NCBI GenBank assembly: GCA_965261545.1
Contig: CBDHDF010000002.1
Span: forward strand, 608,001-672,000
Length of the DNA stretch: 64,000 nt
Source of the DNA: Bdellovibrionales bacterium
GTDB lineage: Bacteria; Bdellovibrionota; Bdellovibrionia; Bdellovibrionales; UBA1609
Direction: 5' to 3'
Shown: positions 13,221 to 54,709 of the stretch, piece after piece
Position numbering within the stretch: the stretch's first letter is position 1
Layout: every line of letters begins with the position of its first letter
Notes under the pieces: generated by a model
Seen by the model: the letters and a program-made list of their open reading frames with translations, nothing else
What the model was told of the DNA's origin: nothing
Databases searched by the model: none
Position numbers and translations under genes: made by a program

Positions 13221-15840
13221 CCTGGGGCCATGGAGCGTGATGGCCTTAATTTCTCAAAGGGGAATTTCTCTCATATCCTCTTTGATAGCTTTGTTTGTCG
13301 TTAGCATGGGTTCCCTGGCCTTTATCTCTATGCGAGTGGGTCAAGAAAAAGAAGCCCTCGCTTTAAAACAGAAGCTCGCCAATATTCATTTGGAATCCTC
13401 GATCACAGAAGTTTTTTACAATGGTTTTTGTTCTTGTCATTTTGATGCCAGTATCAACAGAATCACTCCTTCAGGGAGTCTTCTCTTGGACACAGCTCAA
13501 CTCAGCAATATAAATTTGGGGGTTATCAGACCAAATTGTGTGTTTAAAAGCAGTAAGACTGATCTTGTAAAGTCCAATACGCGATTGCGAAATGGGGGAG
13601 GTTTGGTGGTGAAGGACATTATGGTGAAAGATTTAATGTCCATAGGATCAAGAGGATCCGTCAATGAGTACTCTGGAAATCTCGTGATAAGCTACAAGGA
13701 ATCCAGTCAGGTACGTCTCCTTGAGCCCATATCTATACCTCTCATTTTTTCTGTGGATCCGACTTCAAAAGCTTTTTCTACCAAAAAACCAATTCAATAC
13801 TGCTGGGAGGAGGGTGTCCATTATGATGATGGGCCTGAATGTCTTCAACTGGGAGAAGACAATGCAATTCTACATTCTGAGAGAACGAGTCTCCTTGGCT
13901 GTGGTGTCACAATAAAATCGACAAAGAAAGAGAAGACAGCCCTAGGCTTTGATGTGGCAGCTCAGAACTGGGGTTCTCAGGGCAAAACAAACGTAAGTGT
14001 GGGTACCTACCTGGGTTTTCAATCTGGGAACCAAACCCCCCGAGATAGAGAGGGGACACAGGAGAAAAATACTTTTTTAGGTTTTAAATCGGGTGATAAA
14101 ATAACGGATTCCGACTTAACTATGATTGGTTATCATTCAACCCCACCCCATGGTGGAGATATTAGCAAATTTGTATGGATAGGAGTGGATATAGGGAAAG
14201 GGAAGAATGATAAGAAGGACGGCTTAAACAGTTATGGTGTCGTGATAGGTAGCCATGCAGGAGAAGTGCCAAATACGCATGCTATCTTTGTGGGAACAGA
14301 GGCTGGACGCAACGCCAACTCAGGGATTATCTTAGGTGATCAAGCGGGACTTCATGCTGCTAATCATGGTAGTGGTTACCATGAGGAGCAAATATTTATA
14401 GGAACTAGAGCCGGCTTGAATCGACGCATCAGAGGTACGAGCCGTGGCCTTCTTCGTACCAACGATGTTATTATTGGCCACGAGGCTGGAGTGAATGTTG
14501 GAACAATTAGGCTTTGGAAAGATAAAATTTATCTTCTTGCGAAAGGAGTTAATAAGGGGGACCCCGTTGTCATGGCGGGAGATCGTATTTTAATCGGTCA
14601 GGGTGCTGGCCAGGCTGGAGGGGGCCTTGGTTTGATGATAGGTTTTGAGGCTGGTCAAAAGGATTTTTCTGGACTCAATTCTTTTGATTATGAGACATAT
14701 ATGAGGGACGGGGTTGAAAGAAATGTAGTAGTTTCTATGAGTTTCTTAATCTTTAAGGATGAAAGTAAAAATGATCATACAATAAATCTAAGTAATACAG
14801 TTCGAGCTTATGGTGCGAATTTCTTTGTGGGCGGGCAGTCAGGCTCCAATTTTATAAGGGGGATGATGAATACTTTTTTAGGTTTTCAATCTGGATATTC
14901 AAAGCTAGGTGGAGACAGTAATACCTATATTGGAGCCTTTGCAGGCTACAGTGATGGCACAGATTCACATTCACATAACAATACCTGTATCGGTTGGAAA
15001 TCTTGCTATGCCAACCAAGGGAGTGTGACGATGCCCTTTTCTTTGCCTTCTGGCATAAAGGTTGTTGCCTGGCGTCAGGATGAGGAGTCAATTCGAACAG
15101 GAAGCAAGAACACCATCCTCGGGGCCCTTGCTGGAAAGGCGAATATCCATGGTTCTCACAATATACTTATTGGCAAAGGAGTGGGATCTTCAGCGATGTA
15201 TAGCGATATTAATAATAAATTCATGGTGGGCACTGAAAATAACCAAGAATGGTTGAGCGGAGATATCAATGCAACATCAACACTGTCAGTCAACGGGGCA
15301 GCTTTAACCACCCCAAGTTCAAGGGCCTTGAAGAAAAATATAGTTCCTGTGAAGAATTTTAAAAAATACCTTCAATCTATACTGGAAACTCCACTTTTTA
15401 CTTATCAATACAAAGAGTTGAACCTCCACCCCGACAAAGTGCGTATGGGTGTTATTTCTGAGGAACTTCCTAAATACTTACAAATCAAACAGAAGGGAAG
15501 ATTGTCTCGTCCTGATTGGCCAAGTATCTATGGGGTTTTTGCAGCCAGTATCAAGTGGATTTATGAATCGACCATGACTCTTGAGAAAACCATGCTCACC
15601 AAGTTGAATGAATTTATGAACTCATTGGATCAACTTGAAAGAGGGTATAAAAATATGAAGAAAGATGTTGATAGATGGATGAAAACTATAAATGTGACAA
15701 AAAATCATATCAAGCAATCTAAAAAGGTGATCAAAGAAATGAGAGGTGAAATATCAAAGACAAAATCTTACACACAAAGAAAATGGGAAGAACTCATAGG
15801 CGATGATCCACGAGAAGATAAAGGTGAGTCCCATGAATAA
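13213..15840 (+). CDS. Prepilin-leader fibre protein with S74-type chaperone, subunit B
   Basis: ATG at 13213 after GGAG, overlapping the upstream stop (ATGAATGA); RG|ISLISSL; CSCHFD; SSRALKKNI...MGVISEE. Confidence 0.8.
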   Translation: MNDLGPWSVMALISQRGISLISSLIALFVVSMGSLAFISMRVGQEKEALALKQKLANIHLESSITEVFYNGFCSCHFDASINRITPSGSLLLDTAQLSNINLGVIRPNCVFKSSKTDLVKSNTRLRNGGGLVVKDIMVKDLMSIGSRGSVNEYSGNLVISYKESSQVRLLEPISIPLIFSVDPTSKAFSTKKPIQYCWEEGVHYDDGPECLQLGEDNAILHSERTSLLGCGVTIKSTKKEKTALGFDVAAQNWGSQGKTNVSVGTYLGFQSGNQTPRDREGTQEKNTFLGFKSGDKITDSDLTMIGYHSTPPHGGDISKFVWIGVDIGKGKNDKKDGLNSYGVVIGSHAGEVPNTHAIFVGTEAGRNANSGIILGDQAGLHAANHGSGYHEEQIFIGTRAGLNRRIRGTSRGLLRTNDVIIGHEAGVNVGTIRLWKDKIYLLAKGVNKGDPVVMAGDRILIGQGAGQAGGGLGLMIGFEAGQKDFSGLNSFDYETYMRDGVERNVVVSMSFLIFKDESKNDHTINLSNTVRAYGANFFVGGQSGSNFIRGMMNTFLGFQSGYSKLGGDSNTYIGAFAGYSDGTDSHSHNNTCIGWKSCYANQGSVTMPFSLPSGIKVVAWRQDEESIRTGSKNTILGALAGKANIHGSHNILIGKGVGSSAMYSDINNKFMVGTENNQEWLSGDINATSTLSVNGAALTTPSSRALKKNIVPVKNFKKYLQSILETPLFTYQYKELNLHPDKVRMGVISEELPKYLQIKQKGRLSRPDWPSIYGVFAASIKWIYESTMTLEKTMLTKLNEFMNSLDQLERGYKNMKKDVDRWMKTINVTKNHIKQSKKVIKEMRGEISKTKSYTQRKWEELIGDDPREDKGESHE

Positions 15841-18256
15841 TGTTTCTCAAGAACATTATGGCTTTGCCATGGTTTCCGCGCTCTTATTTATTTTTCTTAT
15901 GGGTCTATCTATGTTGTCTTTTTTATCCAAGGTTAATATGAGGGATAAAGACAACCTTGGTTTAGCTAAGGATATTCGAAAGCAGCGTGTTGAGTTATCT
16001 GTTAAAAAAATGATGAATCATAAGAGATGCCTATGTCATTTTGATCCAGCACAAAATACTTCAGTTTCTGTACCACTGGGAATTGATACAGTGAATTTTC
16101 ATGATATTCCATTGGGCATCATAAGAAAAGATTGTGATTTTAGTTCCTCCGATAATGTTCTTATTCAAAATGGAAGTGCTTTGGGCAAAGGTTTTGCGGT
16201 CGATAAAATCAAGGTGACGAACCTTAGGGGCCAACGAGGCTCCTACCGATCCTATTTGGGGGAAATTCTCATCACTTATTCAAGCCAAAACAATAGAGAA
16301 AGACCCCCTTCCCCCTCTTCGATTCCCCTCGTTTTTGTCGTTAACGACAATATGGGAACGGATGAAAACCGACCTGTTTTGTCCTGTTGGAGCGCTGCTT
16401 ACTCAACTCCTAAAGAGTTGGCATTATTTGATGAATCTTGTTACTTTGTAGATGAAGAGGCCGATACGACGCAGGATCCAGATGCGAAGTCGAAGGGTCG
16501 GATTCTTGTGGGCTGTGAGGGAACCGTAGGTACCACAAATGCCCCTCGCCCTCCAACGACCACGGCCTTTGGATTTCAGGCTGGAAAATCTCTCACGGAT
16601 CCTGCCCATATAGGAAATACTTATTTTGGGTATCAAGCAGGAATGAATCACCAAGGAGATAAAACCACAATGATAGGTTACATGGCAGGTAAAATGTCTG
16701 ATTCTGCAAAAAGTATAAGTGTACGAAAAAGTAATTTTATTGGATATCGTGCAGGGGAGTCTTTGATCGAGGGTGAAAATTTACATTTTGTGGGAGCCGA
16801 GGCCGGTCTCAATACAGTGGTGGCCAACAATAATATTTTTGTGGGTGCTTCGGCGGGGAAGAACCACACCAAGGGAAATAGGAATGTGTTTTTGGGTTAT
16901 GCAGCGGGGAGAGATGGTTTTCCAGATCCTGCATCCAGTGACACCATCGATGACAATATTCTTGTGGGATATAAGGCGGGGTTAAAGAACAGGGGAGATC
17001 GAAATATTTTTATTGGCTCTCAGGCGGGAGAGGCCAATATAGATGGTTCAGGTTCTGTGGTGATGGGTTTTCAATCAGGTCAGAAAAATAGTTCCATCGA
17101 CAAGAGTGTTCTTATAGGATATGAGGTGGGAAAGAAGAGTCAAGGAGGTGAATACTCCGTGTTTATAGGTCATAGGGCTGGAAGAGAAAATACAGGAGAT
17201 AAAAATACATTTGTAGGTAATTCTTCTGGGTTGAAGAATAAAAGTGGCCAAGAGAATGCTTTTTCAGGGCATGAATCAGGTAAATCCAATACCACGGGTT
17301 CACAAAATACTTTTATTGGAGCTTCTGCGGGGCAGAAGAACACATCGGGTTCCTACAATACTTTTGTAGGAAAAGAGGCAGGGGCTGCCAATACGACAGG
17401 GGATGCAAACACCATGATTGGTATGCAAGCAGGGGCTCAGAATACCACAGGAAGCAATAATATATATATAGGGTTTGGTGCTGCCAATATCAGTGACACC
17501 GATACTTATAAGACGGGTAGCAATCAATTTGTTGTTGGTAATAGTACGAATAAAACTTGGTTGACGGGAGAGATGACTTTCACAGGGGATCTTTTTGTGG
17601 AGGTGGGGGGGGCCAAGATCAAAGCCGGGTCGGCTGCAAGTTCACGTTTTCTGAAAAAGAATATTCGGCCTGTCACCGACTTTAGGAAATACTTAGATGA
17701 TATCTTAGATACTCCTCTTTTTACATATCAATATAAGGACCCCATGAATCACCCCCATAAGACACGCATGGGAATTATCTCTGAGGAACTGCCCGAGCAT
17801 TTACAAATCAAAAGCAAGGTACGAATTCTTGATGGTATCACAGATGAAATATCCCGTCCCGATTGGCCCAGTATCTATGGCTATTTTTGGGCTGGTCTCA
17901 AGGCTCTCCATCAAATAAAAACAGAGTTGGAAGAAGATCTTCTTTCAAAGATTCAAGATTTTCTCTCTCGGATTCAATCCATCAAGGAGAAGCAAGTTCG
18001 CTTTATTGAGGTATGGACCCAGAATAAAAAAGAAATGTCATCGATTCAATCCAAGCTCCATCAGGTGAATCGAGAAATGGAGCAGGTCCAACGGGAAATC
18101 GTCAAGACAAGAAAGGATTTTGATAGGGATTGGGAGGAATTGATGGCAAGAATTTCTTCCTCCCGGTCGGCTTCTTCTTCTATGCCACCCCCACCTTCAC
18201 TCTCGTCCTCGGCTTCTTCTTCTGTGCGCCCCTACCCACCTTCGTCATCACCATGA
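15833..18256 (+). CDS. Prepilin-leader fibre protein with S74-type chaperone, subunit C
   Basis: ATGAATAA overlap with B; YG|FAMVSALL; CLCHFD; regular NTTGxxNTFxG repeats; SSRFLKKNI; Ser/Pro tail. Confidence 0.8.
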   Translation: MNNVSQEHYGFAMVSALLFIFLMGLSMLSFLSKVNMRDKDNLGLAKDIRKQRVELSVKKMMNHKRCLCHFDPAQNTSVSVPLGIDTVNFHDIPLGIIRKDCDFSSSDNVLIQNGSALGKGFAVDKIKVTNLRGQRGSYRSYLGEILITYSSQNNRERPPSPSSIPLVFVVNDNMGTDENRPVLSCWSAAYSTPKELALFDESCYFVDEEADTTQDPDAKSKGRILVGCEGTVGTTNAPRPPTTTAFGFQAGKSLTDPAHIGNTYFGYQAGMNHQGDKTTMIGYMAGKMSDSAKSISVRKSNFIGYRAGESLIEGENLHFVGAEAGLNTVVANNNIFVGASAGKNHTKGNRNVFLGYAAGRDGFPDPASSDTIDDNILVGYKAGLKNRGDRNIFIGSQAGEANIDGSGSVVMGFQSGQKNSSIDKSVLIGYEVGKKSQGGEYSVFIGHRAGRENTGDKNTFVGNSSGLKNKSGQENAFSGHESGKSNTTGSQNTFIGASAGQKNTSGSYNTFVGKEAGAANTTGDANTMIGMQAGAQNTTGSNNIYIGFGAANISDTDTYKTGSNQFVVGNSTNKTWLTGEMTFTGDLFVEVGGAKIKAGSAASSRFLKKNIRPVTDFRKYLDDILDTPLFTYQYKDPMNHPHKTRMGIISEELPEHLQIKSKVRILDGITDEISRPDWPSIYGYFWAGLKALHQIKTELEEDLLSKIQDFLSRIQSIKEKQVRFIEVWTQNKKEMSSIQSKLHQVNREMEQVQREIVKTRKDFDRDWEELMARISSSRSASSSMPPPPSLSSSASSSVRPYPPSSSP

Positions 18257-18979: not shown

Positions 18980-19270
18980 ATGAGAAAGAAACACAGCGCA
19001 CAATTTAAGGCCAGAGTCGCACTTGACGCCATTCGTGAGACTGACACAATGGCAGAGTTGGCCTCCAAGCATGGAGTTCACCGCATCCAAATCCAAGATT
19101 GGAAGAAGCAAGCTATTGAAGCCATTCCTAAGGCCTTAGCGAGCAAAAAAAAGGACAACAACGAGGTAGAAGAACAAAGAAAAACCATTGATGAATTGTA
19201 TCGGCAAATAGGGCAGTTAAAGGTTGAAAATGATTGGTTAAAAAAAAAATCTGAGAGCTTCAATGCCTGA
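18980..19270 (+). CDS. IS3 OrfA (HTH)
   Basis: [14 protein letters not shown]...[18 protein letters not shown]. Confidence 0.9.
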
Positions 19271-20111
19271 GAAAAAAGCCGCTATCAATTGGAAACATCC
19301 AAATATTTGTGTCACTCGCCAATGTGAGTTGCTAGGACTCTCTAAGGGAGCCTTGTACTACAAGCCCATACCTGAGAGTGCCTACAACTTAAAACTGATG
19401 AGTTTAATTGACAAACAGTACTTGGAGACCCCTTTTTATGGGAGCCGTAAAATGGCAGCTCACTTAAGACTTAATGGCCATGGGGTCAACCGCAAGAGGA
19501 TTCAGCGGCTCATGGAAAAGATGTGTCTTTTCGCTATCTTCCCAGGTCCAAACACCAGTCAGCGAAACCATCAGCATAAGGTTTATCCCTACCTACTTAA
19601 GGGGCTTAATATCTGCTCCCCCAACCAAGTGTGGGCTACTGATATTACTTTTATAAGGTTGTCTGGTGGCTTTGCTTACTTGGTAGCTGTGATAGATTGG
19701 TTTAGCCGATTTGTTCTGTCTTGGAGACTTTCTAATAGCCTTGAGACAACTTTTTGTTTAGAAGTCTTTGAGGAAGCCATAGAAACATTTGGTTGCCCTG
19801 ATATCGTCAATACTGATCAAGGGTGCCAATTCACTTCTGAGGTTTTCACAAAATTATTGAAAAATCATGGAATCTCGATCAGTATGGACGGCAAAGGCAG
19901 GTGTTTAGACAACATTATGATCGAGCGGCTTTGGCGGTCTGTTAAGTACGAAGAGGTTTACTTGAAAGGCTATCAAGACAAATCAATGGTTCAAGCCAAC
20001 AAAGGTTTTAAAACGTATTTTAATTTTTATAATAATAAAAGGCCACACCAGTCTCTTCAGGATTGCACCCCTTATCAGGTGCATATGGGAGAGGTGGATT
20101 TAACACATTAA
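19263..20111 (+). CDS. IS3 OrfB DDE integrase
   Basis: [42 protein letters not shown]. Confidence 0.93.
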
Positions 20112-20550
20112 CACGGGGCTTCTTTGTGCGCTGTGGTGTAGCTTAAAAATCAAGTTTTTCAGTCTGACATTGGGGTCCACCTCAGAGGCCACGGTATTAT
20201 CGCCCAAACACTTTCCCCAGTCCTCAATAATGCGATTGGAGGTAATAAGAGTGCTTTTTCTCGCTGAGTATCGATCCAGAATGATTTCCTGGAAGTCATC
20301 GCAAGCCTCTGGCGGAATGCGCTTTCTAAGAAAAAGATCATCAATGATCAACAGGTCCACATGGATGAGTTGGGTGTAGAACCTCTTTCTGCGCCCCAGC
20401 TGCCTGGCCTCAAAGAGATTTTCAAAGAGCTTGTGAGCTTCTTGATACAAAACCTTGTAATTTGATATGGAACAGACCTTGGTGGCTATAGCTTTTGCAA
20501 TGTGGCTTTTTCCAGTTCCAGGGGAGCCAATAAGCAAGGCTCCCTCCCCC

Positions 20551-23104
20551 CAATGGCATTCGTTTAGTGAGAGATCCCATTCGGTTAAGGATTTGAACCT
20601 CTAACTCCTCGGGGGTGGGCTAACCCCAAGTTTTTTTCTTTGATCCATGTGATTATCCGTTGGCCATAGCCCCCCTAACCTCTTTACTGGGTCTCCATAC
20701 TCCGATGGGTTTTCTAGAAACTCGGTCGTAATGCCTATTCGGACGTAGCCTTTGTCGGCAGGTCTTCATATTTGTAATGATGCAATTGAGGGTTTTACTA
20801 AGCACTACCTTTTGTTGAAGAAAAAGACCTTCAATATTTCTTGCAATTGTCAGTAAATTGTTTTTAAAGTTTTTCTGCATGGTTTGTTTTTTACTATGGG
20901 ATTGAGATGTATTAAGACGGTCTTCCGTGTAGTTGGAAAATAATCTTGTCAGAGTGATAAGTGTGAAGTGTGCAAACAATTCTTGTTTGACTCCCCTTTC
21001 ACTTTGAGAATGAAACTCTTCAATGGTCATCAGTTCTTTGGATATTTTGTACAGTTCCTCTATACTCCAGCGTCCATGATAGAGATTGGCCAGATCATCA
21101 ATGGAATATTTTTTTTGATCCATTAAGGTTGTTCCTAGAACAAAAGTAGTTTGTCCAATTTTATATTTGACCAAACGCAAAGCGTAGGCTTTGAAGTCGT
21201 CTTGTGGCTTTTTTTTATGTAGTTCTTTCAGAATTTGCTTGCTAGGAATGACTTGGATCACTGAGTCTTTTTGATCATTATTAATAAATTCATCAAAAAC
21301 AGTGTTGGCATTTCTCCTTATCCTAAACACCGCATGCAGACTTCGCACCTTATGCTCATGAAGCATTTCGTAGGAATAATAGCCACGATCATAAACCACA
21401 ACATCGTTTTCAAACAATTTTTTGAAATGAGTTTGTGCAGCCTTTCTCTCATTGTTATGGGCAAAGAGATCAAAATCCACAGGAATCTTCGACTGTAGTT
21501 GGTACAGGCAACTGACAAGACCTTGAGGGTACCATGCTTTTTCCCATGGTTGCTGATACCCATTATCTACGAGTTGACGTGGTAAATTTATTTTCGATCC
21601 ATCCACTGCGAAAACCTTATGGCCCTTCCATAAGGTACTAGAATTGGATATACCGTCTTGTTTAAGAATTTCATCATGCAAAACTTTAAATATATTTTCA
21701 TCTACTTTAGCCCGTGCACTACACATAGTGGATGCCCGAACTGTTTTAGGTTGAGGGAGTTCAATGTCTAATATGCGACACTGCTCCCAAAGTTCAATCA
21801 AAGTTGTATCATAACCTTGTTTTCCTTTAGAGAAAACAAGTCGGAAGATGAAAAGTATAATCAACAATGTATTCAAGACACGTTGACGCTTTTGCCAGGT
21901 TCGGTCGTACTCATCTGCAATGATAACCACTGTCTTGATGATGTTTTGCCAAAGATGCACAAAAGAGTCCTCTAGCATAGGCTCAGCCAAGTTCTTATGT
22001 GGCTTGATGGTGGGTTTCCCGACGGGTTTCTTGATAGCGCATTGGGGGCCATTCAATAAGATAGACTGATAATTCTTTGTCAGAGGTTGAACATAAACAC
22101 CTTTTTGAGTTTTTCCCTTTACATTTTTGTAGGCACGACTCCCATTTGTTTTGCCCAAATAAAGCCAGTTGGCAGCACGATAGCTCGTGGCATTAAATTT
22201 GGTAAGGTCGACAAAAGTCTCCATGAGTACAGGTTTGAAAGCATGTTTTAACTCCCAGTCTGTGGGAAGTTGGCGAGTTGCCATAGATAAAGCCATCGAA
22301 GCAAGATGGCGAACCTTTACCCAGGGAAAGATCAAAAATCGACTATTGTTCACCACTAAATTCAAGTGCTTTTTGTAAGCTCGATTTTGCCAACCGATCC
22401 ATTCATCACGGCAAGGCAAAGTGGATGTGCCAGCTTCAAATAAAAGACAACCCAATCTTCGCCCACAATTATCTAAGATGAAATAGCGTAAGTGGGGACC
22501 AAAGGGACGTCTGTAATTGAGATAATGATGCCGATCGACAACTTCATTCCATTCCTTAATGGCCTCTTGATCAGTTACGATTTGCAAAGAAAGTGGGGTC
22601 AATGAGTCTAGTTTATCGTTGATGAGAGGCTTTTCATCTGTTCGGTGTGTCCAAGTGATTTTTTTGGAGGGGACACTCCGCTTTGACATGTCTTTTTCTG
22701 GCAGGGATAGAATGTCAAGTTCCTCTAGCGTCTCAAGCATACGAAGGCACGATTGGATGCGATGATCACCTTTGGGAGTTAGCCAACCAAGATGCTCACA
22801 AACTGTATAACCCAGTTCACGGCGACTTAAAGAAGGAAATAGCGCCACCGTCTTTTGAATGTCGGCAATTTGCTTGCGCGTCAAGCGTCTTCCAAAAAAA
22901 GTTGTTGAAGGCAATGTCTCTATGCGTGGGTCCATTTGAGTCTCTCCCCTTTGGGAATGGTTCAAATATAATGTGACACAACGATGGGGTGGACTCAAGT
23001 ATTTTTTTTCGGAAAAAGAAAAAAGATAAAAGCCCCCTTAACTCAGTATGTTAGAGGGAGTCAGAAAAATGTGGAAAAATCTTCTGCAAAAACGAATGCC
23101 ATTG
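20551..23104 (-). mobile_element. IS4-family element with DUF4338-fused transposase
   Basis: Perfect TIR CAATGGCATTCGTTT / AAACGAATGCCATTG; no TSD visible. Confidence 0.85.
20653..22935 (-). CDS. DUF4338 domain plus IS4 DDE transposase fusion
   Basis: N-terminal HHYL..RDEWIGW..NNSRFLIFPW..ETFVD..YRAANW; C-terminal AVDGS, YDRGY, YHGRWSIEELYK (YREK-type motif). Confidence 0.85.
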   Translation of the reverse strand: MDPRIETLPSTTFFGRRLTRKQIADIQKTVALFPSLSRRELGYTVCEHLGWLTPKGDHRIQSCLRMLETLEELDILSLPEKDMSKRSVPSKKITWTHRTDEKPLINDKLDSLTPLSLQIVTDQEAIKEWNEVVDRHHYLNYRRPFGPHLRYFILDNCGRRLGCLLFEAGTSTLPCRDEWIGWQNRAYKKHLNLVVNNSRFLIFPWVKVRHLASMALSMATRQLPTDWELKHAFKPVLMETFVDLTKFNATSYRAANWLYLGKTNGSRAYKNVKGKTQKGVYVQPLTKNYQSILLNGPQCAIKKPVGKPTIKPHKNLAEPMLEDSFVHLWQNIIKTVVIIADEYDRTWQKRQRVLNTLLIILFIFRLVFSKGKQGYDTTLIELWEQCRILDIELPQPKTVRASTMCSARAKVDENIFKVLHDEILKQDGISNSSTLWKGHKVFAVDGSKINLPRQLVDNGYQQPWEKAWYPQGLVSCLYQLQSKIPVDFDLFAHNNERKAAQTHFKKLFENDVVVYDRGYYSYEMLHEHKVRSLHAVFRIRRNANTVFDEFINNDQKDSVIQVIPSKQILKELHKKKPQDDFKAYALRLVKYKIGQTTFVLGTTLMDQKKYSIDDLANLYHGRWSIEELYKISKELMTIEEFHSQSERGVKQELFAHFTLITLTRLFSNYTEDRLNTSQSHSKKQTMQKNFKNNLLTIARNIEGLFLQQKVVLSKTLNCIITNMKTCRQRLRPNRHYDRVSRKPIGVWRPSKEVRGAMANG

Positions 23105-24222: not shown

Positions 24223-26562
24223 ATGAAGATAATTATATGTTTATGTTGGCTCTATTCTTTTAAATTCCTTAAAGCGTGGGTGAATTTTGCCATTGGACTT
24301 TATATTTTTATTTTCTTAAGAACAAAAGCATCTGGTTTTTCTCTTATATCCATGCTCATAGCTCTTTCTATCATGGGTTTTTCCATGACGGCTCTTATTT
24401 CCCTTATGGTAAACCATGAAAAAGGCAACCTGACTTTAAATAGAAAAATGGAAAATATTCGCCTCAAAAACAATTTGATAAGAACGATAAGGGATACAGA
24501 TATATGTTCTTGTCATTTCACTTCTTCTAGAGCCACTGCCATCAATTTAGATACAAAGGGCTTAGGGGATATCACAATGGCCTCCATTCGAAGAAGCTGC
24601 GACTTTTCATCTTCCTCTAATATTCTCTTCAAGAGTGGAGCCTTTGTTCCTGGAAGCAATCAATTGAGAGTAGCTAGCATCAAGGTCACAGGCATTAAGT
24701 TTACTGGAACAAAAAATCAATATTGGGGAAATCTCACGGTCAATTATAACCAAGATAGTTTGTCTTCAATTCTTTCACCTATTTCTGTTCCCTTTACTTT
24801 CTCTGTGGACGGGACCTCAGGAACAGAGAGTGCTCGTCCCATTCAATCCTGTTGGAATACGTCAGTGGTGCAAATTCAACAGCAAGATAATAATTGTATG
24901 ACTGTGGATCCAGCAGGGCCGGAGACTAAAGGGAGAACTCTTTTGGGGTGTGGGGGAACTTCTAATGCTTCCCACAAACATAGTACGGCCTTTGGTTATG
25001 CTGCTGGGGTTTCTTCAGGAAGTGGTAATAACACTTATCTTGGTTATCGTGCGGGGACTCAACACAGTGGAAGCCAAAGTACTTTTGTGGGATACAAAGC
25101 AGGGGAGTCCGCAGGTAATGCTTCATCCAACACAGTGGTGGGATCTCATGCAGGAAGACTTGCAACAGGGGGGGAGCAGGTTCTTATAGGAATTGAGGCA
25201 GGGGAAAAGTCCACTGGAAATAAGAATGTTTTTGTAGGATACCAGACGGGGCAAAGAAATACTAGTGGAAGTAGAAATGTAGCGTTCGGTAACTCTGCAG
25301 GACGAAACAATAGCAAAAATCACGACAATGTGCTATTGGGCCATAATGCCTTTTCCCATAATTCCTTTTCATATTATGGTGACGGGAGCGAAAATGTTGT
25401 TGTGGGTGAAAGTTCGGGTCTCAGCAGCCGAAGAAGTCGAGGCATTTTTATTCAATCAAAAGGATTCGGGACGTTTCGAAATCTTGCTATAGGTGAGTTA
25501 TCAGGAGGACACGGATCAGATAATGTGGCCATAGGTTATAAGGCAATGGGTAGTAGGAAGCAGACTGCTGGCTTCAAAAATGTTGCAGTAGGACAGTGGG
25601 CTGGAAGGAACAAAACAAAAGGTGATGAAAATACTTATGTAGGATTTAGGGCAGGAGAGTCTGGTAACGGATCCAACGTTAATGAGAATACAGCTATAGG
25701 CTCATTTGCCATGATAGGGAATGTGGGTGGCAAGAAAAATGTCATGTTAGGTTTTTCGGCAGCAGAGAAATCACCTTATGGTAATGGGAATGTTTTGGTG
25801 GGCGCTGGAGCTGGGAGGTTTCTTTCTCTGAAAAATGATAGTATTTATATAGGCGATTCGGTAGCCACTACGGGTAGCACTAAAAATTCTCAATTCATTG
25901 TGGGTGTTTTGTCGTATCTAATTATGAAGCCAAGAATTTGGATAAGAGGAACCATGACTCCAACAGGCAATCTTTATATTAATGACCAGCAAGTTGCTAT
26001 AACAAGTTCTCGACACTTGAAGAAGAATCTACGTCCCGTGAGGGATGTAAAAAAATATGTGGATCATCTCATCAAAACACCCTTGTTTACCTATGAGTAC
26101 AAAAGTAAGAATCTTCATCCTAAAAAGAATCGTATGGGATTTATATCTGAGGAGCTCCCTGAAAGCCTACAGCTTAGGAGCAAAGGTCAACTGTCCCATC
26201 CCGATTGGCCAAGTATTTATGGATATTTTTGGGCAAGCATTAAGTATCTTTACGATATGTTGGAAGGCATTAGGAAGATACTCAATGTTGAAGTGAACAA
26301 AATGAAGAATCACATAAGCCTTTTTCAAGCAAAGCACGATCGATGGTTGAACAAGACCATGGCTTCTAAGCAAGCGATTGCATATCTTAGTACTCACTTA
26401 TCTCAAGTATCCCAAGAGCTTGAAGATTCCAAGCGAGATCTTAGGGAACTCAAAAGGGATATAAAAGAGCAGTGGGAAGAAATAGAGAAACAGTTTCCTG
26501 GTGGATGGGTGCTATCGAGCTTAGAAGTCAGGGAGTTTAGTGATGGGGCTCAAAATGAGTAA
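24223..26562 (+). CDS. Prepilin-leader fibre protein with S74-type chaperone, subunit A' (start uncertain)
   Basis: SG|FSLISMLIAL; CSCHF; shares GCGGT..HST.FG and GGEQVL with 10860-13220; SSRHLKKNL. Confidence 0.8.
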   Translation: MKIIICLCWLYSFKFLKAWVNFAIGLYIFIFLRTKASGFSLISMLIALSIMGFSMTALISLMVNHEKGNLTLNRKMENIRLKNNLIRTIRDTDICSCHFTSSRATAINLDTKGLGDITMASIRRSCDFSSSSNILFKSGAFVPGSNQLRVASIKVTGIKFTGTKNQYWGNLTVNYNQDSLSSILSPISVPFTFSVDGTSGTESARPIQSCWNTSVVQIQQQDNNCMTVDPAGPETKGRTLLGCGGTSNASHKHSTAFGYAAGVSSGSGNNTYLGYRAGTQHSGSQSTFVGYKAGESAGNASSNTVVGSHAGRLATGGEQVLIGIEAGEKSTGNKNVFVGYQTGQRNTSGSRNVAFGNSAGRNNSKNHDNVLLGHNAFSHNSFSYYGDGSENVVVGESSGLSSRRSRGIFIQSKGFGTFRNLAIGELSGGHGSDNVAIGYKAMGSRKQTAGFKNVAVGQWAGRNKTKGDENTYVGFRAGESGNGSNVNENTAIGSFAMIGNVGGKKNVMLGFSAAEKSPYGNGNVLVGAGAGRFLSLKNDSIYIGDSVATTGSTKNSQFIVGVLSYLIMKPRIWIRGTMTPTGNLYINDQQVAITSSRHLKKNLRPVRDVKKYVDHLIKTPLFTYEYKSKNLHPKKNRMGFISEELPESLQLRSKGQLSHPDWPSIYGYFWASIKYLYDMLEGIRKILNVEVNKMKNHISLFQAKHDRWLNKTMASKQAIAYLSTHLSQVSQELEDSKRDLRELKRDIKEQWEEIEKQFPGGWVLSSLEVREFSDGAQNE

Positions 26563-28894
26563 GCCTAGGCTACCACGGAGAACGATGATATTATTATCTC
26601 CAAGGGGAATATCTCTTGTATCTGCCTTGGTAGCTATGACTGTAATTGGTATGGCTGCACTTTCTTTTGTCTCCATGGAAGTGAGTCAAAAAAAAGAAAG
26701 TATTCTTTTAAAGCAAAGGCTCACTCATATTGGTTTGGAATCATTTATAACACAGACCTTGTATACGGGAACTTGCTCCTGTCACTTTGACCCTACTGTG
26801 AATACGTCAGCAGCTGCGGGGACACTCAATCTTAATACAAGTACATTGGCTGATATTAATTTGCAATCCATACGAACAGGCTGTGCGTTTAGTAGTGATG
26901 ACAATGTAATTCTAAAGGTCAACAAGGAGGTTCCTGACAGTGTAGGTCTTATTGTGAGCCGCATTGCTGTCAAGAATTTAACACCCACAGGAAGCACCGA
27001 TGAATACTCTGGAAATCTTGTTGTCAACTACACGAAATCGAGCCAAAAGCGTCTCCTCAATCCCATTTCTATACCCCTCATTTTTTCTATTGATTCCACA
27101 TTGGGAACTCCCTTGGCAAGGTCCATTCAATCTTGTTGGAAAGATAAATTGACACAAGATCAATATCCTCCTGAATGTGCTCAAATGACGGGGGATGGCC
27201 AGAAGAATCATCTTGTGGGGTGTCAGATATCACAGCCCCCCTTTTACGGAAATACAACACTTGGCTTTAACTCGGGAGTGACGGGGCAGTTTGATTGGAA
27301 TAGAAAAGGAACCAGCTTAGGCTTTCAGGCCGGGAAAGGAAAGTATATAGGCCAAGAGCGAGGGTACCTGAGTTCTTCTGAGAATACTCTCTTAGGTTTT
27401 AAGTCAGCCAATAGATTTGGAGGTGGTCGCCGTTTAACTCTCATTGGTCCTCAATTCATAGGTCCGGTTATGGCTAATGGGGCCCCTAACAAGACAGATG
27501 AAGCAACATTGATTGGTTTGAATATGGGACGTGACTATGTTCTAAGTACAAGGGCGACTGTAGCTATAGGCACTGATTCGGGACGAAACCCCTCAAAAAA
27601 ATTTCTCGCCGTTCATAAGTCTCTTTTTATTGGCACTAGTACTGTTGGCAACGGTCACCAAGATCCCCGCCAAACGATCATAGGTTACCAGGCAAAGGCA
27701 AGGCCAAAGATCGAGAATATCTCTGAGACCACATCCATTGGAACGCAAGCAAAATCAAAGTATGGAATATCTATTGGTCACAATAGTGGGAATAATTCTT
27801 CAAGAGGCCTTTTCATCGGTAGTGGTGCTGGAAAAAATACACTTATTGAGAACGTGCTGGCAATTGGTTTTGAAGCATCTCCAAAACAGCAGTCTACTGG
27901 AGATTATAATACTTTTTTAGGTGCAAGATCGGCTCATAACTTTGTGGGTGGGGGGCCACCTGGATCCTTTGTCTATGCCTATCATTTGAGTTCTGGATGG
28001 AATACTGCTTCCATCGCTGGGGATGGGGCGAGGAATGTGTTTATCGGTGCTGACTCTGGGCTTTCGCTGGTATCTGGAGGCTACAATCTCTACGTAGGTG
28101 CTTCTTCAGCTTCTTATGTTGTCCATAGCAGCAAGAATGTTTGTATAGGTTGGAATTCTTGTAAAAAAGCCACAACTTCCATAGGAGGTAATACCATAAT
28201 AGGAGCTGATGCTGGAACGGGAATTGGTGGGCGTAGCAATATATATATTGGTTATGGCGTGGGAAAAGCAGGAACTCATCAGAGTCATTATGATGATCGA
28301 TTTGTGTTGGGAACCCACAATCGTGACCAATGGCTGAATGGATCAATGGATATACTTTCAACACTTTATGTCAATAACAGGCCGCTAAACACAGCAAGTT
28401 CAAGGGCTTTAAAGAAAAACATAGGCTCTGTAATGAATCTTAAAAAATACTTTCAATTTATACTAAAAACCCCTCTCTTTACCTATCAATACAAAGATCC
28501 CAGTCGTTATCCTGACAAAATACGCATGGGTGTGATCTCTGAGGAGCTTCCTAACTATTTGCAAATTAAAAAAGAAGGGGAACTCTCTCAACCCGATTGG
28601 GTAAGTATCTATGGACTCTTTGCGGCCAGCATTAAATGGATATACAACTCTATCATAATTTCCGAGAAAATTGCGTTTGATAAAGTGAAAGCATTCACAG
28701 ATTTATTAATTGACCTTGGACAGAATGACAAGAATATGAATGCGGATATGGATCAATGGACTAAAGATTTTGCCATAGCAAAGAATCATATCCATACTTC
28801 GAAAAGTAAGATGAAAAAAGTAAGAGGTCAAATATCAGATGTGAGAAATTATATAAGGAAAAAATGGAAAATTTTTTATGATCAGAGTCAATAA
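26555..28894 (+). CDS. Prepilin-leader fibre protein with S74-type chaperone, subunit B'
   Basis: ATGAGTAA overlap; RG|ISLVSAL; shares EYSGNLV, NxCIGWxSC, SSRALKKNI and FAASIKWIY with 13213-15840. Confidence 0.8.
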   Translation: MSKPRLPRRTMILLSPRGISLVSALVAMTVIGMAALSFVSMEVSQKKESILLKQRLTHIGLESFITQTLYTGTCSCHFDPTVNTSAAAGTLNLNTSTLADINLQSIRTGCAFSSDDNVILKVNKEVPDSVGLIVSRIAVKNLTPTGSTDEYSGNLVVNYTKSSQKRLLNPISIPLIFSIDSTLGTPLARSIQSCWKDKLTQDQYPPECAQMTGDGQKNHLVGCQISQPPFYGNTTLGFNSGVTGQFDWNRKGTSLGFQAGKGKYIGQERGYLSSSENTLLGFKSANRFGGGRRLTLIGPQFIGPVMANGAPNKTDEATLIGLNMGRDYVLSTRATVAIGTDSGRNPSKKFLAVHKSLFIGTSTVGNGHQDPRQTIIGYQAKARPKIENISETTSIGTQAKSKYGISIGHNSGNNSSRGLFIGSGAGKNTLIENVLAIGFEASPKQQSTGDYNTFLGARSAHNFVGGGPPGSFVYAYHLSSGWNTASIAGDGARNVFIGADSGLSLVSGGYNLYVGASSASYVVHSSKNVCIGWNSCKKATTSIGGNTIIGADAGTGIGGRSNIYIGYGVGKAGTHQSHYDDRFVLGTHNRDQWLNGSMDILSTLYVNNRPLNTASSRALKKNIGSVMNLKKYFQFILKTPLFTYQYKDPSRYPDKIRMGVISEELPNYLQIKKEGELSQPDWVSIYGLFAASIKWIYNSIIISEKIAFDKVKAFTDLLIDLGQNDKNMNADMDQWTKDFAIAKNHIHTSKSKMKKVRGQISDVRNYIRKKWKIFYDQSQ

Positions 28895-31169
28895 AAACCA
28901 TATCAATAAAAATCATGGTTTCGCCATCACATCCATTCTCTTGGCCATTTCTATTATGAGTACTTCCATGTTGTCTTTTTTATCACGATTGAACATAAGT
29001 CATAAAGAAACCAATGAATTGGCTAAAAAATTTAGAAGTCGTAGCATTGAGATGGTTGTTAACCAATTAATGGACAATGATCGATGCTCTTGTCACTTTG
29101 ATCCCACAAAAAATACAGAGACTTCCACCTCCTCGCTGAGTATCAATACAGTGCAACCACAGGATATCTCACTGGGAAGTATAAGGTCAGGTTGTGATTT
29201 CACTTCTTCTAATAACATTTTCCTTAAAAATGGAACCTCTGTGGGCGAAGGTTTGGTCGTGGATAAAATCAAGGTATCTAGTATTAAGGCTGCAACCAAT
29301 TCTCAAAATGTTTTTAATGGGAATATAGTCATTAGTTATTCGAGTCAAAATACAACATCCATACCAAGTGCTTCTTTAATTCCCATGACCTTTACTATTG
29401 ATACCAATGAAGGGTCCAATCAAAGTCGGCCCATAAAAGCTTGCATGAGTTCAAAATATCATCTTTTATTGTCATCATCATCAGGATCTTGCTATCTCTT
29501 TGATACAAGTATGACTGATAAGAGTGGAGGCCGGACTCTTATAGGCTGTGGAGGTAGTGTGAGTACAGATCGTGCAAGGTTTACCACAGCCTTTGGTTTT
29601 AGGGCTGGAAGTTCCACCGTATCTCACATAGGAAATACCTACTTTGGATATGAATCAGGACTCAAACACGACGGCGAAAAAACCACCATGGTGGGTTATA
29701 AGACTGGAAGGCTTGCCACATCCCTAAAACAGAGTACTCTTATTGGATATCGGGCTGGAGAGCAAACTCAATCAGGTCAAAACTTCTACGCTATTGGAGC
29801 TGAGGCGGGTACCAATACACAGTTTGGAAATGAGAATATTTTTATAGGGACTCTGGCGGGAAATAATAATAGGCAGGGATCTAGAAATATTTACCTGGGT
29901 CATGAGGCAGGCCGATATGGAATACGTGGCAATGACAATATTTTTGCAGGATATCAGGCTGGTCTCCAGAATCGTGGATCTCGAAATATTTTCATAGGCT
30001 CCAGAGCGGGACAAAAGAATCTCACAGGGGAAGACTCTGTCCTGATAGGTTGTCAAGCAGGACTTTCCAATACGTTCATCCATAAAAGTGTTTTTATGGG
30101 GTATCAAGCAGGAAAGTCCAGTCAAGGAGGTCAATCTTCTACTCTTATTGGTTATCAGACAGGTTTCAATAATAAGGCAGCTAAAAATACATTTATAGGT
30201 AATTATTCTGGATATAATAATAAGAAAGGTCATCATAATGTTTTTGTGGGGCACGCCTCAGGTCAGAAAAACACAACCGGCTCATACAATACTTTTTTAG
30301 GAACTTATGCAGGGTACCAAAATAAGATAGGTTCTTACAATACTTTTGCGGGAAATAGATCGGGCTACAATAACACTAGGGGGCAAGGTAATACCTTCAT
30401 GGGATATAAGGCCGGAGCTAGTAACACCACAGGAAGTTATAATGTATTCATAGGCCATCAGGCCGCCAACAACTCCAACTACTCCACTGCCAGTTATAAG
30501 CTTGTTATTGGTAGTCCCAGTGCAAAAACTTGGATGACCGGTGATATTACGGCTACGGGAGGTCTTTATATCAATGGTCAGGAGGTAGGTAGTCCTCCTT
30601 CTTCCAAGTTTTTAAAGAAAAATATTCGGCCTGTGACCAACTTTAAGAAGTACTTAAACAGTGTGCTCAAGACTCCTCTTTTCACATATCAGTACAAAAG
30701 TTCCATGAATTTTCCCCACAAAACTCGTATGGGAATCATCTCTGAGGAGTTACCCAAACAACTACAGATCGTGCCCAAGGGGAAGCTTTCCCATCCAGAT
30801 TGGCCTAGTATTTACGGTTATTTTTGGGCCAGCTTTAAAGCTCTCCATGAGATCAGGCAAGAGTTGAAGAACACACTTCTTTTAAGAATCCAAGATTCTC
30901 TTTTACAACTTAAGTTCATAAAGGAGAAACAAGCTCGTTTTATTGAGAAATGGATTCACAATAGACAGAAAATGTCGTTGATCCAGTCTGAAATTCGACG
31001 GGTGTATGAAGAAATGGAGCAGGTGAAAAAAGAAACAGCACAGGTCAAAAAGAACTTTGACAGAGATTGGGAAAATTTAATGATTAGGCTTTCTCCTTCA
31101 CCTCTCTCACCATCGCAACCTTCCCCATCATCCACCACTTCTTCTTCGATCGTAGATGCGAGGAACTAG
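28878..31169 (+). CDS. Prepilin-leader fibre protein with S74-type chaperone, subunit C'
   Basis: HG|FAITSILL; HIGNTYFGY; NTTGSYN repeats; SSKFLKKNI; FDRDWE; Ser/Pro tail as in 15833-18256. Confidence 0.8.
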   Translation: MIRVNKNHINKNHGFAITSILLAISIMSTSMLSFLSRLNISHKETNELAKKFRSRSIEMVVNQLMDNDRCSCHFDPTKNTETSTSSLSINTVQPQDISLGSIRSGCDFTSSNNIFLKNGTSVGEGLVVDKIKVSSIKAATNSQNVFNGNIVISYSSQNTTSIPSASLIPMTFTIDTNEGSNQSRPIKACMSSKYHLLLSSSSGSCYLFDTSMTDKSGGRTLIGCGGSVSTDRARFTTAFGFRAGSSTVSHIGNTYFGYESGLKHDGEKTTMVGYKTGRLATSLKQSTLIGYRAGEQTQSGQNFYAIGAEAGTNTQFGNENIFIGTLAGNNNRQGSRNIYLGHEAGRYGIRGNDNIFAGYQAGLQNRGSRNIFIGSRAGQKNLTGEDSVLIGCQAGLSNTFIHKSVFMGYQAGKSSQGGQSSTLIGYQTGFNNKAAKNTFIGNYSGYNNKKGHHNVFVGHASGQKNTTGSYNTFLGTYAGYQNKIGSYNTFAGNRSGYNNTRGQGNTFMGYKAGASNTTGSYNVFIGHQAANNSNYSTASYKLVIGSPSAKTWMTGDITATGGLYINGQEVGSPPSSKFLKKNIRPVTNFKKYLNSVLKTPLFTYQYKSSMNFPHKTRMGIISEELPKQLQIVPKGKLSHPDWPSIYGYFWASFKALHEIRQELKNTLLLRIQDSLLQLKFIKEKQARFIEKWIHNRQKMSLIQSEIRRVYEEMEQVKKETAQVKKNFDRDWENLMIRLSPSPLSPSQPSPSSTTSSSIVDARN

Positions 31170-31468: not shown

Positions 31469-31529
31469 TGAGGTGGACCCCAATGTCAGACTGAAAAACT
31501 TGATTTTTAAGTTACACCACAGCGCACAA
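31469..31529 (-). mobile_element. Isolated right end of the IS3 element
   Basis: Near-identical reverse complement of ~20124-20184. Confidence 0.85.
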
Positions 31530-31597
31530 CCCCGATGGGCGGGTTAAACCAGGCCATTTGTGGGCGGGCAAACCAGGCCATTTAGGGCGATCTGACA
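31530..31597 (-). mobile_element. Right end of second IS21-type element
   Basis: CCCCGATGGGCGGG followed by two AAACCAGGCCATTT repeats, immediately downstream of istB. Confidence 0.6.
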
Positions 31598-31616
31598 AGA
31601 TGGGCTCACCCTACAT

Positions 31617-32090
31617 TTAATTTTTTATCTTGACAAGTCGGTTTGAAGCTTCCTTCAATCGGTAGCTTTTTCCCTCAAATTTTAATAGTTGGCTGCAGTG
31701 GAGAAGGCGATCCAGGATGGCAGAGGCCACGGTATTATCGCCCAAACACTTTCCCCAGTCCTCAATAATGCGATTGGAGGTAATAAGAGTGCTTTTTCTC
31801 GCTGAGTATCGATCCAGAATGATTTCCTGGAAGTCATCGCAAGCCTCTGGCGGAATGCGCTTTCTAAGAAAAAGATCATCAATGATCAATAGGTCCACAT
31901 GGATGAGTTGGGTGTAGAACCTCTTTCTGCGCCCCAGCTGCCTGGCCTCAAAGAGATTTTCAAAGAGCTTGTGAGCTTCCTGATACAAAACCTTGTAATT
32001 TGATATGGAACAGACCTTGGTGGCTATAGCTTTTGCAATGTGGCTTTTTCCAGTTCCAGGGGAGCCAATAAGCAAGGCTCCCTCCCCCTG
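31617..32090 (-). pseudogene. istB: istB remnant, 5' truncated
   Basis: GSPGTGKS, LLIIDD, ITSN, AILDRLLH, GKSYR; N-terminus replaced by the IS21 end at 32091. Confidence 0.9.
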
Positions 32091-51668: not shown

Positions 51669-51914
51669 TTTTCACCTTTGGAGTTGCCACGAAGTTATCG
51701 ACTTCCTTCTCTTAGTCAAGCTTTCTTCCTATCCTATATATCTACCAAAGATATGAGAGAGGGCTTTTAGAGAGGTTTTTCGTTGTGACATCACCTAACT
51801 TTTCATAATCACTTATCGGACTTAAGTCCTAATACTTGAGTTGTTTTTTTAGAGAATAGAGGTGTGAGGCATTATTTCTTGGACATCTTCTTTCTATTAT
51901 TATACATCAGAGGA

Positions 51915-53546: not shown

Positions 53547-53548
53547 TT

Positions 53549-54709
53549 ATGTCATTGATTAAAATACGCCGTCTGGACAAAAATATTCCCAAAGTGACCA
53601 AGGAATTATGCGACCATATGCTTAAGGAATTGGAATCCGCAAGGCGCCCCATGCTCCAAGCCACCAAGTGTTCCCTAGATAATGCCACTTATAGTTCCAC
53701 CAAGGGCTACTTAAGACCTGGAAACAAGGTTGTCACCACAGAACTTAATGTGTCTTCGGTTCAAAAGCTTGCCAGAACCATATTTATGTTAGAAACACTC
53801 TTAAACAATTTAAAGACGGGGGCTGTCAATACAAAGCGTGAGATTTACTATATCTCCAAGGGAGCCGTTAGATCCAACGTCCATTTTCAACCCATTGATT
53901 TTGAGACACAAGATGAGAGTGATGCCATCATTAACTACATTTGTGACTTGCTTGAAGTTTACCGCGAAGAAATGAATTGCTATGCCAATGATCGTGGAGG
54001 ACAAACCTACTCTAAAAACCTTATTGTCGTGGAAACCCTTGAAGATGACTCCAAGGCCACCATAGATCTTTCTCTCTTGGGAACCACTCCCTTTCAGCCA
54101 AAAAATAAACCCCAACAGTTCAAGCTGAGAGCTAAGGGAAAACTCGATTTTTGCTTAGTTGTTGAGTCTGAAGGTACAGCCAACACTCTTGTCACCAACG
54201 GCTTCACCAAAAGAAACAAATGCATTGTTGTTGGAGCCCAGGGGGTTCCTAGCAATGGTGTTCGTGGGTGGTGTAAAACGATTCAAGATCAGCTGCAAAT
54301 TCCCATTTATTTTTACGGAGATTTAGATGCCTACACTTTGCAAAATATTTATAGAACACTGAAGGCCGGTTCGGCAGCGAGTCTCATTAGAAATCGCGAT
54401 TTTTCGGCTCCCAAGGTGCGTTTTTTGGGAGTGTTACCCGAAGATGTCTCTAAATACGATCTTCACTGTTATGACGTCAACGACAAGAACCCCACAGAAA
54501 ATCGTTCTCTCAAAAAGGCCAGAGATGTTCTTAGCAACGATCCATTTTTTATGGATAAGAAGAATAAGAAGCTGACTGAAATATTAAAGTGGCTCCTTAA
54601 AAATAAGAAACGATGTGAGCAACAAGCTATTTTTGCCGTGGACCCCAAAGACCCCCTTTTTCCTGAAAAGATTATTTTAGAGAAAATCAATAAAAAAATC
54701 TACGCATAA
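53549..54709 (+). CDS. top6A: DNA topoisomerase VI subunit A
   Basis: TKREIYY catalytic Tyr, QDESD, TOPRIM VVE...GVP...GDLD, CEQQA; follows top6B. Confidence 0.92.
   Translation: MSLIKIRRLDKNIPKVTKELCDHMLKELESARRPMLQATKCSLDNATYSSTKGYLRPGNKVVTTELNVSSVQKLARTIFMLETLLNNLKTGAVNTKREIYYISKGAVRSNVHFQPIDFETQDESDAIINYICDLLEVYREEMNCYANDRGGQTYSKNLIVVETLEDDSKATIDLSLLGTTPFQPKNKPQQFKLRAKGKLDFCLVVESEGTANTLVTNGFTKRNKCIVVGAQGVPSNGVRGWCKTIQDQLQIPIYFYGDLDAYTLQNIYRTLKAGSAASLIRNRDFSAPKVRFLGVLPEDVSKYDLHCYDVNDKNPTENRSLKKARDVLSNDPFFMDKKNKKLTEILKWLLKNKKRCEQQAIFAVDPKDPLFPEKIILEKINKKIYA

Follow-up and report, generated by a model that had tools for sequence, protein, structure and literature searches.

Why should a bacterium keep long paralogous genes in sets of three, each gene holding its place in the order from one set to the next? 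The question is raised by a 64,000-nucleotide (nt) stretch of a Bdellovibrionales genome (assembly GCA_965261545.1, contig CBDHDF010000002.1, positions 608,001 to 672,000, forward strand), referred to here as the window. Two sets of long plus-strand open reading frames (ORFs), spanning 10860-18256 and 24223-31169, encode proteins that start with a type IV prepilin-type leader and carry an S74 chaperone-protease domain and a coiled coil towards their C-terminus; we call the genes A, B and C after their position. Our analysis suggests that the three different chains encoded by a set combine into one fibre on a pilus tip. In many relatives, a fibre of this kind is encoded by one gene. The genes of the two triplets are:

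24223..26562, plus strand: A2; prepilin-type leader, pilin-like head, Gly/Asn repeats, S74 chaperone, coiled coil
26540..28894, plus strand: B2; architecture as A2, position-2 class (CIGWxSC, FAASIKWIY), Gly codon at 26606
28878..31169, plus strand: C2; architecture as A2, position-3 class, Ser/Pro tail, Gly codon at 28917
10860..13220, plus strand: A1; gene 1 of the first triplet
13198..15840, plus strand: B1; gene 2 of the first triplet, with the longest insertions in the repeat region (473 amino acids, aa)
15803..18256, plus strand: C1; gene 3 of the first triplet

Position identity of A, B and C

The initial annotation of the window had noticed that each gene of the second set resembles the gene at the same position of the first through short motifs, and had taken the triplet to be the unit of selection. 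Among the six proteins, the motifs are indeed confined to the genes in which it had placed them: GGEQVL to A1 and A2, RGISL, CIGWxSC and FAASIKWIY to B1 and B2, and HIGNTYFGY to C1 and C2, which also have visible Ser/Pro tails. The gene overlaps that it described are likewise kept: in both operons, in-frame starts precede the ends of the A and B stop codons by 22 and 16 nt, respectively (the true starts are not established). Same-position pairs of the two operons scored 501 (A), 465 (B) and 756 (C) bits in BLASTP, at identities of 41, 37 and 50%, against a best cross-position score of 425 bits (A2-C2), which leaves A2 with a modest margin.

We ran an S74-region profile over the genome's 18,760 ORFs and used Pfam PF13884 as a cross-check. 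Both picked the same 12 proteins, and all 12 genes sit in four A-B-C triplets, of which the window holds two and contig C7 the other two:

C7:320080-327097: third triplet, by S74 profile and PF13884
C7:426745-433639: fourth triplet, by S74 profile and PF13884

The further triplets that the initial annotation proposed to look for are present in the same genome. Three syntenic genes stand in fixed order at all four loci, a feature shared with PilIJK and GspIJK, and none of the 12 has an internal stop despite the insertion sequences between and around the triplets. For the second triplet, a 7114-base contig covers 24100-31213 with no differences in both read sets (one sample, possibly the assembly's source). 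We rejected an assembly artefact on the basis of this agreement and of the identity of only 37-50% between the copies.

With the two further triplets included, the proteins group by position and not by operon, as the initial annotation had predicted. In each of five partitions (whole protein, pilin head, repeats, S74 and coiled coil), the tree needs two changes for the position label versus nine for the operon label. Support for A, B and C in the Shimodaira-Hasegawa-like approximate likelihood ratio test (SH-aLRT) reaches 100/100/100 with whole proteins and 78/85/92 with the S74 domain. Across the four triplets, mean identity is 47-54% within and 31-33% between positions, and the coiled-coil tail is the most class-specific part (43-50% within a class versus 16-19% between classes). 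A sub-tree of triplets 3 and 4 recurs in each position class. GGEQVL and RGISL are absent from these two triplets and C3 has no Ser/Pro tail, while C[ILV]GWxSC and FAASIKWIY are kept in all four B proteins. The subunits may, as the annotation inferred, be non-interchangeable, and its view of the triplets as alternative fibre variants is plausible.

The proteins have a common architecture consisting of the prepilin-type leader, a pilin-like head of ~180 residues, a Gly/Asn beta-solenoid (~20-26 repeat cores per protein by a crude count), the S74 chaperone-protease and a coiled coil of fixed length. Gly precedes the hydrophobic stretch in 12/12, in keeping with a class III signal. The N_methyl family PF07963 is over its cut-off in the four A proteins only; B3 falls under the cut-off and the other seven are not among the listed matches. 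A2, which is 779 aa long when counted from its first ATG (an uncertain start), has a Gly/Phe leader site with its Gly codon at 24334 and a leader that is atypically hydrophobic if that ATG is the start; its N_methyl score is 20.8 bits against a cut-off of 21.2 in one domain scan and over the cut-off in another. B2 matches PF13884 over the cut-off. A Ser-x4-Lys dyad is present in 12/12 as S-S-[RK]-x-[LI]-K-K, and a Trp lies exactly 91 residues after a PDW motif in 11/12, although the tails are so divergent between classes. The repeat region measures 340-376 aa in 10 of the 12 proteins, the exceptions being B1 (473) and B2 (393). In 21 single-gene relatives it ranges from 267 to 883 aa; two further relatives were unmeasurable and two with misplaced starts were excluded.

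AlphaFold2 modelled the C2 head as a helix over residues 2-50 with antiparallel strands (predicted local distance difference test, pLDDT, 84) and the full chain as regularly spaced short strands with a helix at 628-724 (pLDDT 74.5). Self-cleavage of C2 is predicted near mature residue 561. Since there is no separate tip domain before the cleavage site, binding would rest on loops of the repeats.

Nine further ORFs of this genome (G000) have the same pilin-like head and no S74 domain. Each stands alone and has a short or unrelated tail; they include C5:21220-22566, C10:660768-662018, C10:358561-359346, C11:1008640-1009656 and five more. In two pairs of them the heads are almost identical, and the surroundings of the C5 and C10 copies are duplicated.

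Genes in ones or threes across the order

Searches with whole proteins were swamped by the Gly/Asn repeats, and a C2 search of 40 relatives gave weak repeat matches only, in six of them. The 20 same-type S74 loci from the listed genomes are all from Bdellovibrionales with the same family code as the window's genome; 19 hold a complete gene of the same design without a coupled paralogue, the twentieth is a split gene, and one of the 20 has a broken second copy about 5 kb away. Strong matches were found in 14 other genomes of two genera among the 384 genomes of the order that were searched. A single-protein query gave no S74 match at 1e-5 in a phylum sample of 400 other genomes, which is a lower bound because the same query missed pilin-S74 genes later found via the pilin profile. 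Two metagenome-contig scans each gave 262 pattern matches, none of which was confirmed.

A head-only profile matches 177 of the 384 genomes, with no more than eight candidates scored in each. We counted clusters, defined as co-oriented genes within 250 nt, in 11 regions from one genus, 20 from elsewhere, the earlier loci and the window's genome; kin are not independent in this count, and the region set is not random because five of the 20 regions were picked for adjacent matches. The initial count was 88 clusters. On inspection, a pair and a single gene in G291 proved to be one triplet, which leaves 87 clusters: 69 singles, three pairs, 14 triplets and one run of six. The run of six consists of two triplets that lie 247 nt apart and have internal gaps of 8 nt. 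The 18 multi-gene clusters thus comprise 14 triplets, one 3+3 and three pairs, and none has four or five genes. Two of the three pairs are cut by contig ends.

The triplet design is not universal: a single gene is found at most loci in relatives. The triplet as a unit, which the initial annotation proposed, holds in this genome, where every S74 gene belongs to an intact A-B-C set; as a rule for the family it fails in its strict form, the many one-gene loci being just what that annotation had named as contrary evidence, and it returns as a pattern of ones or threes that is the best evidence for a trimeric tip. The idea survives the single-gene loci because multi-gene clusters are almost always of three and position identity is kept in several separate lineages. 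Genes in ones or threes, whatever the tail, fit a trimer whose places are taken either by the product of one gene or by three specialised products.

Three coupled genes, X-Y-Z, occur in G372. In G361 the same set is split over two contig ends, one of which holds one of the cut pairs (X-Y), and the tail of Y lies directly upstream of Z. The X, Y and Z heads pair by position across the two genomes, and the S74 ends pair by genome. Within each genome the S74 and coiled-coil ends of X, Y and Z are near-identical while the heads are position-specific (L071, L079, L080), which points to concerted evolution of the 3' ends only. The approximately unbiased (AU) test rejected a tree with the A-B-C and X-Y-Z heads in a single clade (p 9e-8).

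Other triplets keep position as well. Six G329 genes are pilin-S74 fibres in two tandem triplets that pair 1-4, 2-5 and 3-6 with support of 99-100 and are sister to single pilin-S74 genes; they retain the SD of the S74 consensus. The two triplets of G247 (L116, L117, L121, G247:C2) fuse the same pilin head to long hexapeptide-like beta-helices, not S74 fibres, and pair at positions 1 and 3, with position 2 unresolved. In two separate sets of short-tailed triplets, genes from different genomes pair by position. At L104-L109 (G332, G347, G334) the triplets encode pilins of about 300 aa whose C-terminal domains are rich in Cys; these domains gave no Pfam match in the two tested, and the G334 triplet has an in-frame TAG in its first gene. 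Judged from the sequences, position-keeping triplets occur in at least five lineages, with independence formally tested for A-B-C versus X-Y-Z only. Whatever the tail (S74 fibre, beta-helix or short tail), position identity always lies in the pilin head.

Nearer to A-B-C, A-like, B-like and C-like heads occur on what appears to be one 114398-base contig. A-like and C-like heads with a partial protein lie on a presumed single 31157-base contig, and A-like and B-like heads on a presumed 91099-base contig. In the S74 tree, the 31157 set forms one group of three proteins (90/92).

A different arrangement is seen in G364, where a spaced array (L072-L076, G364:C7:821149-886726) holds 15 prepilin starts with near-identical heads and chaperones. 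Repeat length in the array is strongly variable, the full-length copies measure from 607 to 1207 aa, and broken copies are included. We looked for a period of three in it and found none. The array looks like a recombining variation locus.

A probable heterotrimeric fibre at the pilus tip, and its alternatives

S74 domains trimerise through a coiled coil and perform their cut as trimers only (PMC8326128). The assembly of type IV filaments begins with a tip trimer, either the CofB homotrimer (PMC6048534) or the PilIJK heterotrimer (PMC12918778), and their pilins sit staggered in a helix (PMC10191384). Domain order, the fixed order and tight coupling of the three genes, and the pilus machinery of the genome are read directly from the DNA. 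That machinery includes one match to the prepilin peptidase family PF06750, five secretin matches, 11 T2SSE-family ATPase matches and a canonical pilin on contig C2 (C2:331406). We consider it probable that each triplet encodes one heterotrimeric (1A:1B:1C) fibre capping a type IV filament, and that the single genes encode homotrimeric pilus-tip fibres.

On this account, the three coupled genes would be made in equal amounts, and their chains would be anchored in the inner membrane through the pilin helices. The C-terminal coiled coils and S74 domains would bring the three chains into register, the repeat stalk would fold from its far end, and S74 would cut itself off at the Ser-Lys dyad. Prepilin peptidase would then remove the leaders, and the three bundled pilin heads could start the pilus as its tip trimer, so that the fibre is pushed out to bind some surface, of prey or host. 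Single genes in relatives would give the homotrimeric version. After triplication, each head may have adapted to one of three staggered, non-equivalent places at the helical tip, and we propose that position identity is kept for this reason. The head is always the seat of position identity, even where the chaperone is homogenised, and this suggests the same cause. The four triplets would act as alternative tips.

Support for the 1:1:1 stoichiometry is genomic, with the addition of one weak complex prediction. For the first 325-335 mature residues of A2, C2 and B2, the prediction scored 0.55 against 0.18 for the best control, with contact agreement between runs of at least 80% and a partner pLDDT of at least 63. 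The mark used is reached by 116 of 157 solved and two of 215 mismatched pairs; at 0.60 or under, it is reached by just 18 of the 157 solved pairs and by both mismatches.

Several observations weigh against the heterotrimer. Complex prediction does not separate a hetero- from a homotrimer: the controls included no homotrimer, and the test is also passed by close cousins of a true partner. In all four operons, the core volumes of the combined A, B and C coiled coils are no more even than those of shuffled layers (0.27-0.63 of shuffles at or below the observed value), and g-e charge sums favour AAA over ABC in two of the four operons, tie in one and favour ABC in one. The coiled-coil test thus gave no complementarity, and in triplets of other genomes the chaperones are homogenised and differences by position are confined to the pilin heads. 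As the single genes show, the pilin-S74 design does not need a heterotrimer; one internal pair (G247, its first gene cut short) departs from the count of three, and grouping by position would also follow from duplication of whole operons alone. Glu5 is absent from 12/12, and Ser replaces the Asp of the S74 consensus SDxxxK in 12/12.

Nor did structure searches confirm a pilin fold for the C2 head. It had no Foldseek match at E 0.001, and VIA-align returned pseudopilin and pilin matches at background level (Z 3.5-3.8):

GspI: Z 3.8, root-mean-square deviation (rmsd) 3.2, 79 residues aligned
TTHA1218 (Thermus pilin): Z 3.7, rmsd 3.7, 73 aligned
EpsJ: Z 3.6, rmsd 4.1, 102 aligned
XcpV: Z 3.5, rmsd 3.5, 84 aligned

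The repeats matched the autotransporter adhesins SadA (Z 4.7) and UspA1 (Z 4.4), also at background level (rmsd about 8). Foldseek with the full-chain C2 model gave nothing at E 0.001, the best row being the MyRF ICA domain (E 0.05, not significant alone). A PDB sequence search with the full-length profile returned coiled-coil and pilin-helix rows only (best E 0.0014), the ESM Atlas gave no usable match, and NCBIfam matches were weak, to gspI in 5/33 and pilV in 4/33 alignment members.

It is unlikely that A, B and C each form a homotrimeric tip fibre of their own (or mix randomly) and share an operon since each binds something different and all are needed. Described S74 and mosaic adhesive trimer (MAT) fibres are all treated as homotrimers (PMC12428579), one gene per locus is the most frequent state, AAA comes out best by charge sum in half of the operons, and the class-specific coiled coils could keep three chains apart. 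Yet separate fibres explain neither the number of genes, three and not two or four, nor the equal lengths of the classes. Independent homotrimer genes would be expected to look like the G364 array, with its near-identical heads, free lengths and lack of a period of three, and chains with chaperones as alike as those of X-Y-Z would be unable to sort themselves. Two neighbouring core layers bear on this question: in all four operons, a single Trp of C meets a Thr of A in one layer, and a single Trp of B meets a Ser of A in the other. Separate homotrimers would place three Trp (C) or three Thr (A) in one layer and three Trp (B) or three Ser (A) in the next. These are two layers and anecdotal, and the 114398 set is without them.

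We find it quite improbable that a heterotrimer forms away from a retractile type IV pilus, either capping a type II secretion pseudopilus or staying anchored in the inner membrane by uncleaved helices. The genome does carry a type II secretion locus, which has pseudopilins and a secretin of its own, most of the weak structural matches point to pseudopilins (GspI, EpsJ, XcpV), and no pilus assembly gene was seen beside any of the four triplets in the flanks examined. The missing Glu5 and the N_methyl cut-off, passed by four A leaders only, point in the same direction. Against this stand the Gly before the hydrophobic stretch in every protein and the presence of Glu5 in close relatives of the same design, X, Y and Z all keeping it; moreover, an adhesin-like fibre confined to the periplasm would make little sense. 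That the order is a mere trace of history, in which three copies arose from one gene and diverged before the whole block was duplicated, without any physical or selective link between A, B and C, is scarcely credible and largely refuted by recurrence: such duplication, the shared sub-tree of triplets 3 and 4 and a region rich in insertion sequences would fit it, but the four copies are only about 47-54% identical, no gene has been lost, swapped or broken in a genome rich in such sequences, and the count of three recurs in separate lineages.

More tentatively, the heterotrimer can be extended to the order as a whole. Bdellovibrionales may hold a large undescribed family of tip pilins with a trimer as the working unit, in which several switches have led from one gene (a homotrimer) to three position-specific genes (an obligate heterotrimer), A-B-C being a heterotrimeric S74-chaperoned fibre. 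Subunits of the four operons could then mix to give up to 64 tips, since the chaperones here are specific for position and not for operon. A heterotrimeric S74 fibre, if real, would break the assumed three-fold symmetry and place three different binding grooves on one stalk. The repeated switch from one gene to three, with sister single genes at hand, offers a natural experiment on how homomers become heteromers, and points to pilus tip geometry and not the chaperone as its driver.

Known systems and genomic surroundings

The fusion of a pilin to S74 is already known: modular type IV pilins combining IPR012902 (N_methyl) and IPR030392 (peptidase S74) were catalogued by Raynaud et al. (2021; PMC8179133). 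Those proteins share with ours the prepilin N-terminus and C-terminal S74 in one chain and a predicted tip location; in contrast, S74 is read there as a peptidase module, and the passages concerned are silent on triplets, position classes and heterotrimers. Our literature search, which left most subscription literature outside, found neither the triplets nor a heterotrimeric S74 fibre described, and no published S74-family heterotrimer was seen in the available passages of PMC8099431.

The MAT fibres of Bdellovibrio bacteriovorus, 13 of 21 of which end in a self-cleaving S74 domain (Caulton et al., 2024; PMC10769870), come from the same order and are likewise trimeric fibres in a paralogous repertoire. 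They are described as homotrimers with a signal peptide, a beta-rich domain of about 130 aa and an anchor that is unknown, whereas the proteins studied here have a prepilin-type leader and a 50-residue helix and form ordered triplets; the comparison is with the published description, no MAT sequence having been aligned. The S74 motif also differs (SSxxxK here, SDxxxK in MATs). We did not file the triplets as MATs because the N-terminal module differs. The MAT paper, in the passages available, merely raises a link of the fibres to type IV pili, and two of its supplement files mention neither prepilin nor pilin (PMC10769870). The pilin-S74 genes bear on the question of how trimeric fibres are attached to the surface of Bdellovibrio-like predators: they would build the pilus link into one chain, which is testable.

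The type IVb tip pilins CofB and TcpB resemble our proteins in having a pilin domain, a beta-rich linker and a C-terminal trimerisation domain, and in forming a trimer that starts pilus assembly (PMC6048534). The single-gene relatives fit the CofB plan. CofB is one gene and retains its lectin-like trimer domain, whereas the triplets have three genes and a removable S74 chaperone; neither CofB nor TcpB was among 13 PDB sequence matches at E up to 1.

PilIJK, GspIJK and KilLMN are also three syntenic minor pilins in fixed order (PMC12918778, PMC12075869). In Myxococcus, four paralogous three-gene KilLMN Tad tip clusters give four alternative tips, predicted to be heterotrimers (PMC12075869), which matches what we propose here. 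Those systems consist of three old, differently shaped pilins, usually with one large module, whereas ours are co-linear paralogues that each carry a full fibre, in triplets formed repeatedly beside single-gene forms. A, B and C are more closely related to one another and to the single genes than to anything named. In contrast to PilIJK, Glu5 is missing throughout the A-B-C sets and kept throughout X-Y-Z, not missing from one capping subunit only. We rejected a filing as PilIJK, orthology not being shown and its Glu5 pattern being absent.

The second triplet lies among insertion sequences, which belong to its context and not to the fibre system:

19263..22998, between the triplets: insertion-sequence block with rve integrase, IS21 helper fragment and DruA-DDE transposase

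IS21 helper fragments are repeated on both sides of the second triplet, at 20124-20482 and 31469-32020 (300 nt at 99%), and include a 61-nt inverted pair (20124-20184 and 31469-31529); given these flanking repeats, the triplet could be part of a movable block. The DDE transposase is fused to a DruA domain (20653-22998, minus strand) and has a further copy at C10:955678. Scans for promoters and terminators gave 11 and 3 hits against shuffle expectations of 18.5 and 6.0, that is, below chance.

Just upstream of the first triplet are three DUF285 repeat proteins (2620-4617 and 5818-7656, minus strand; 8396-10408, plus strand), two of which have PKD domains; similar-looking proteins, judged by eye, flank the fourth triplet on C7. 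Farther along the window, a gene at 39336-40976 (plus strand) encodes a deoxycytidylate deaminase domain behind a P-loop-like N-terminus and overlaps a 146-aa ORF; we take its product to resemble anti-phage dCTP deaminases. Genes for the B and A subunits of topoisomerase VI are found at 51864-54709 (plus strand).

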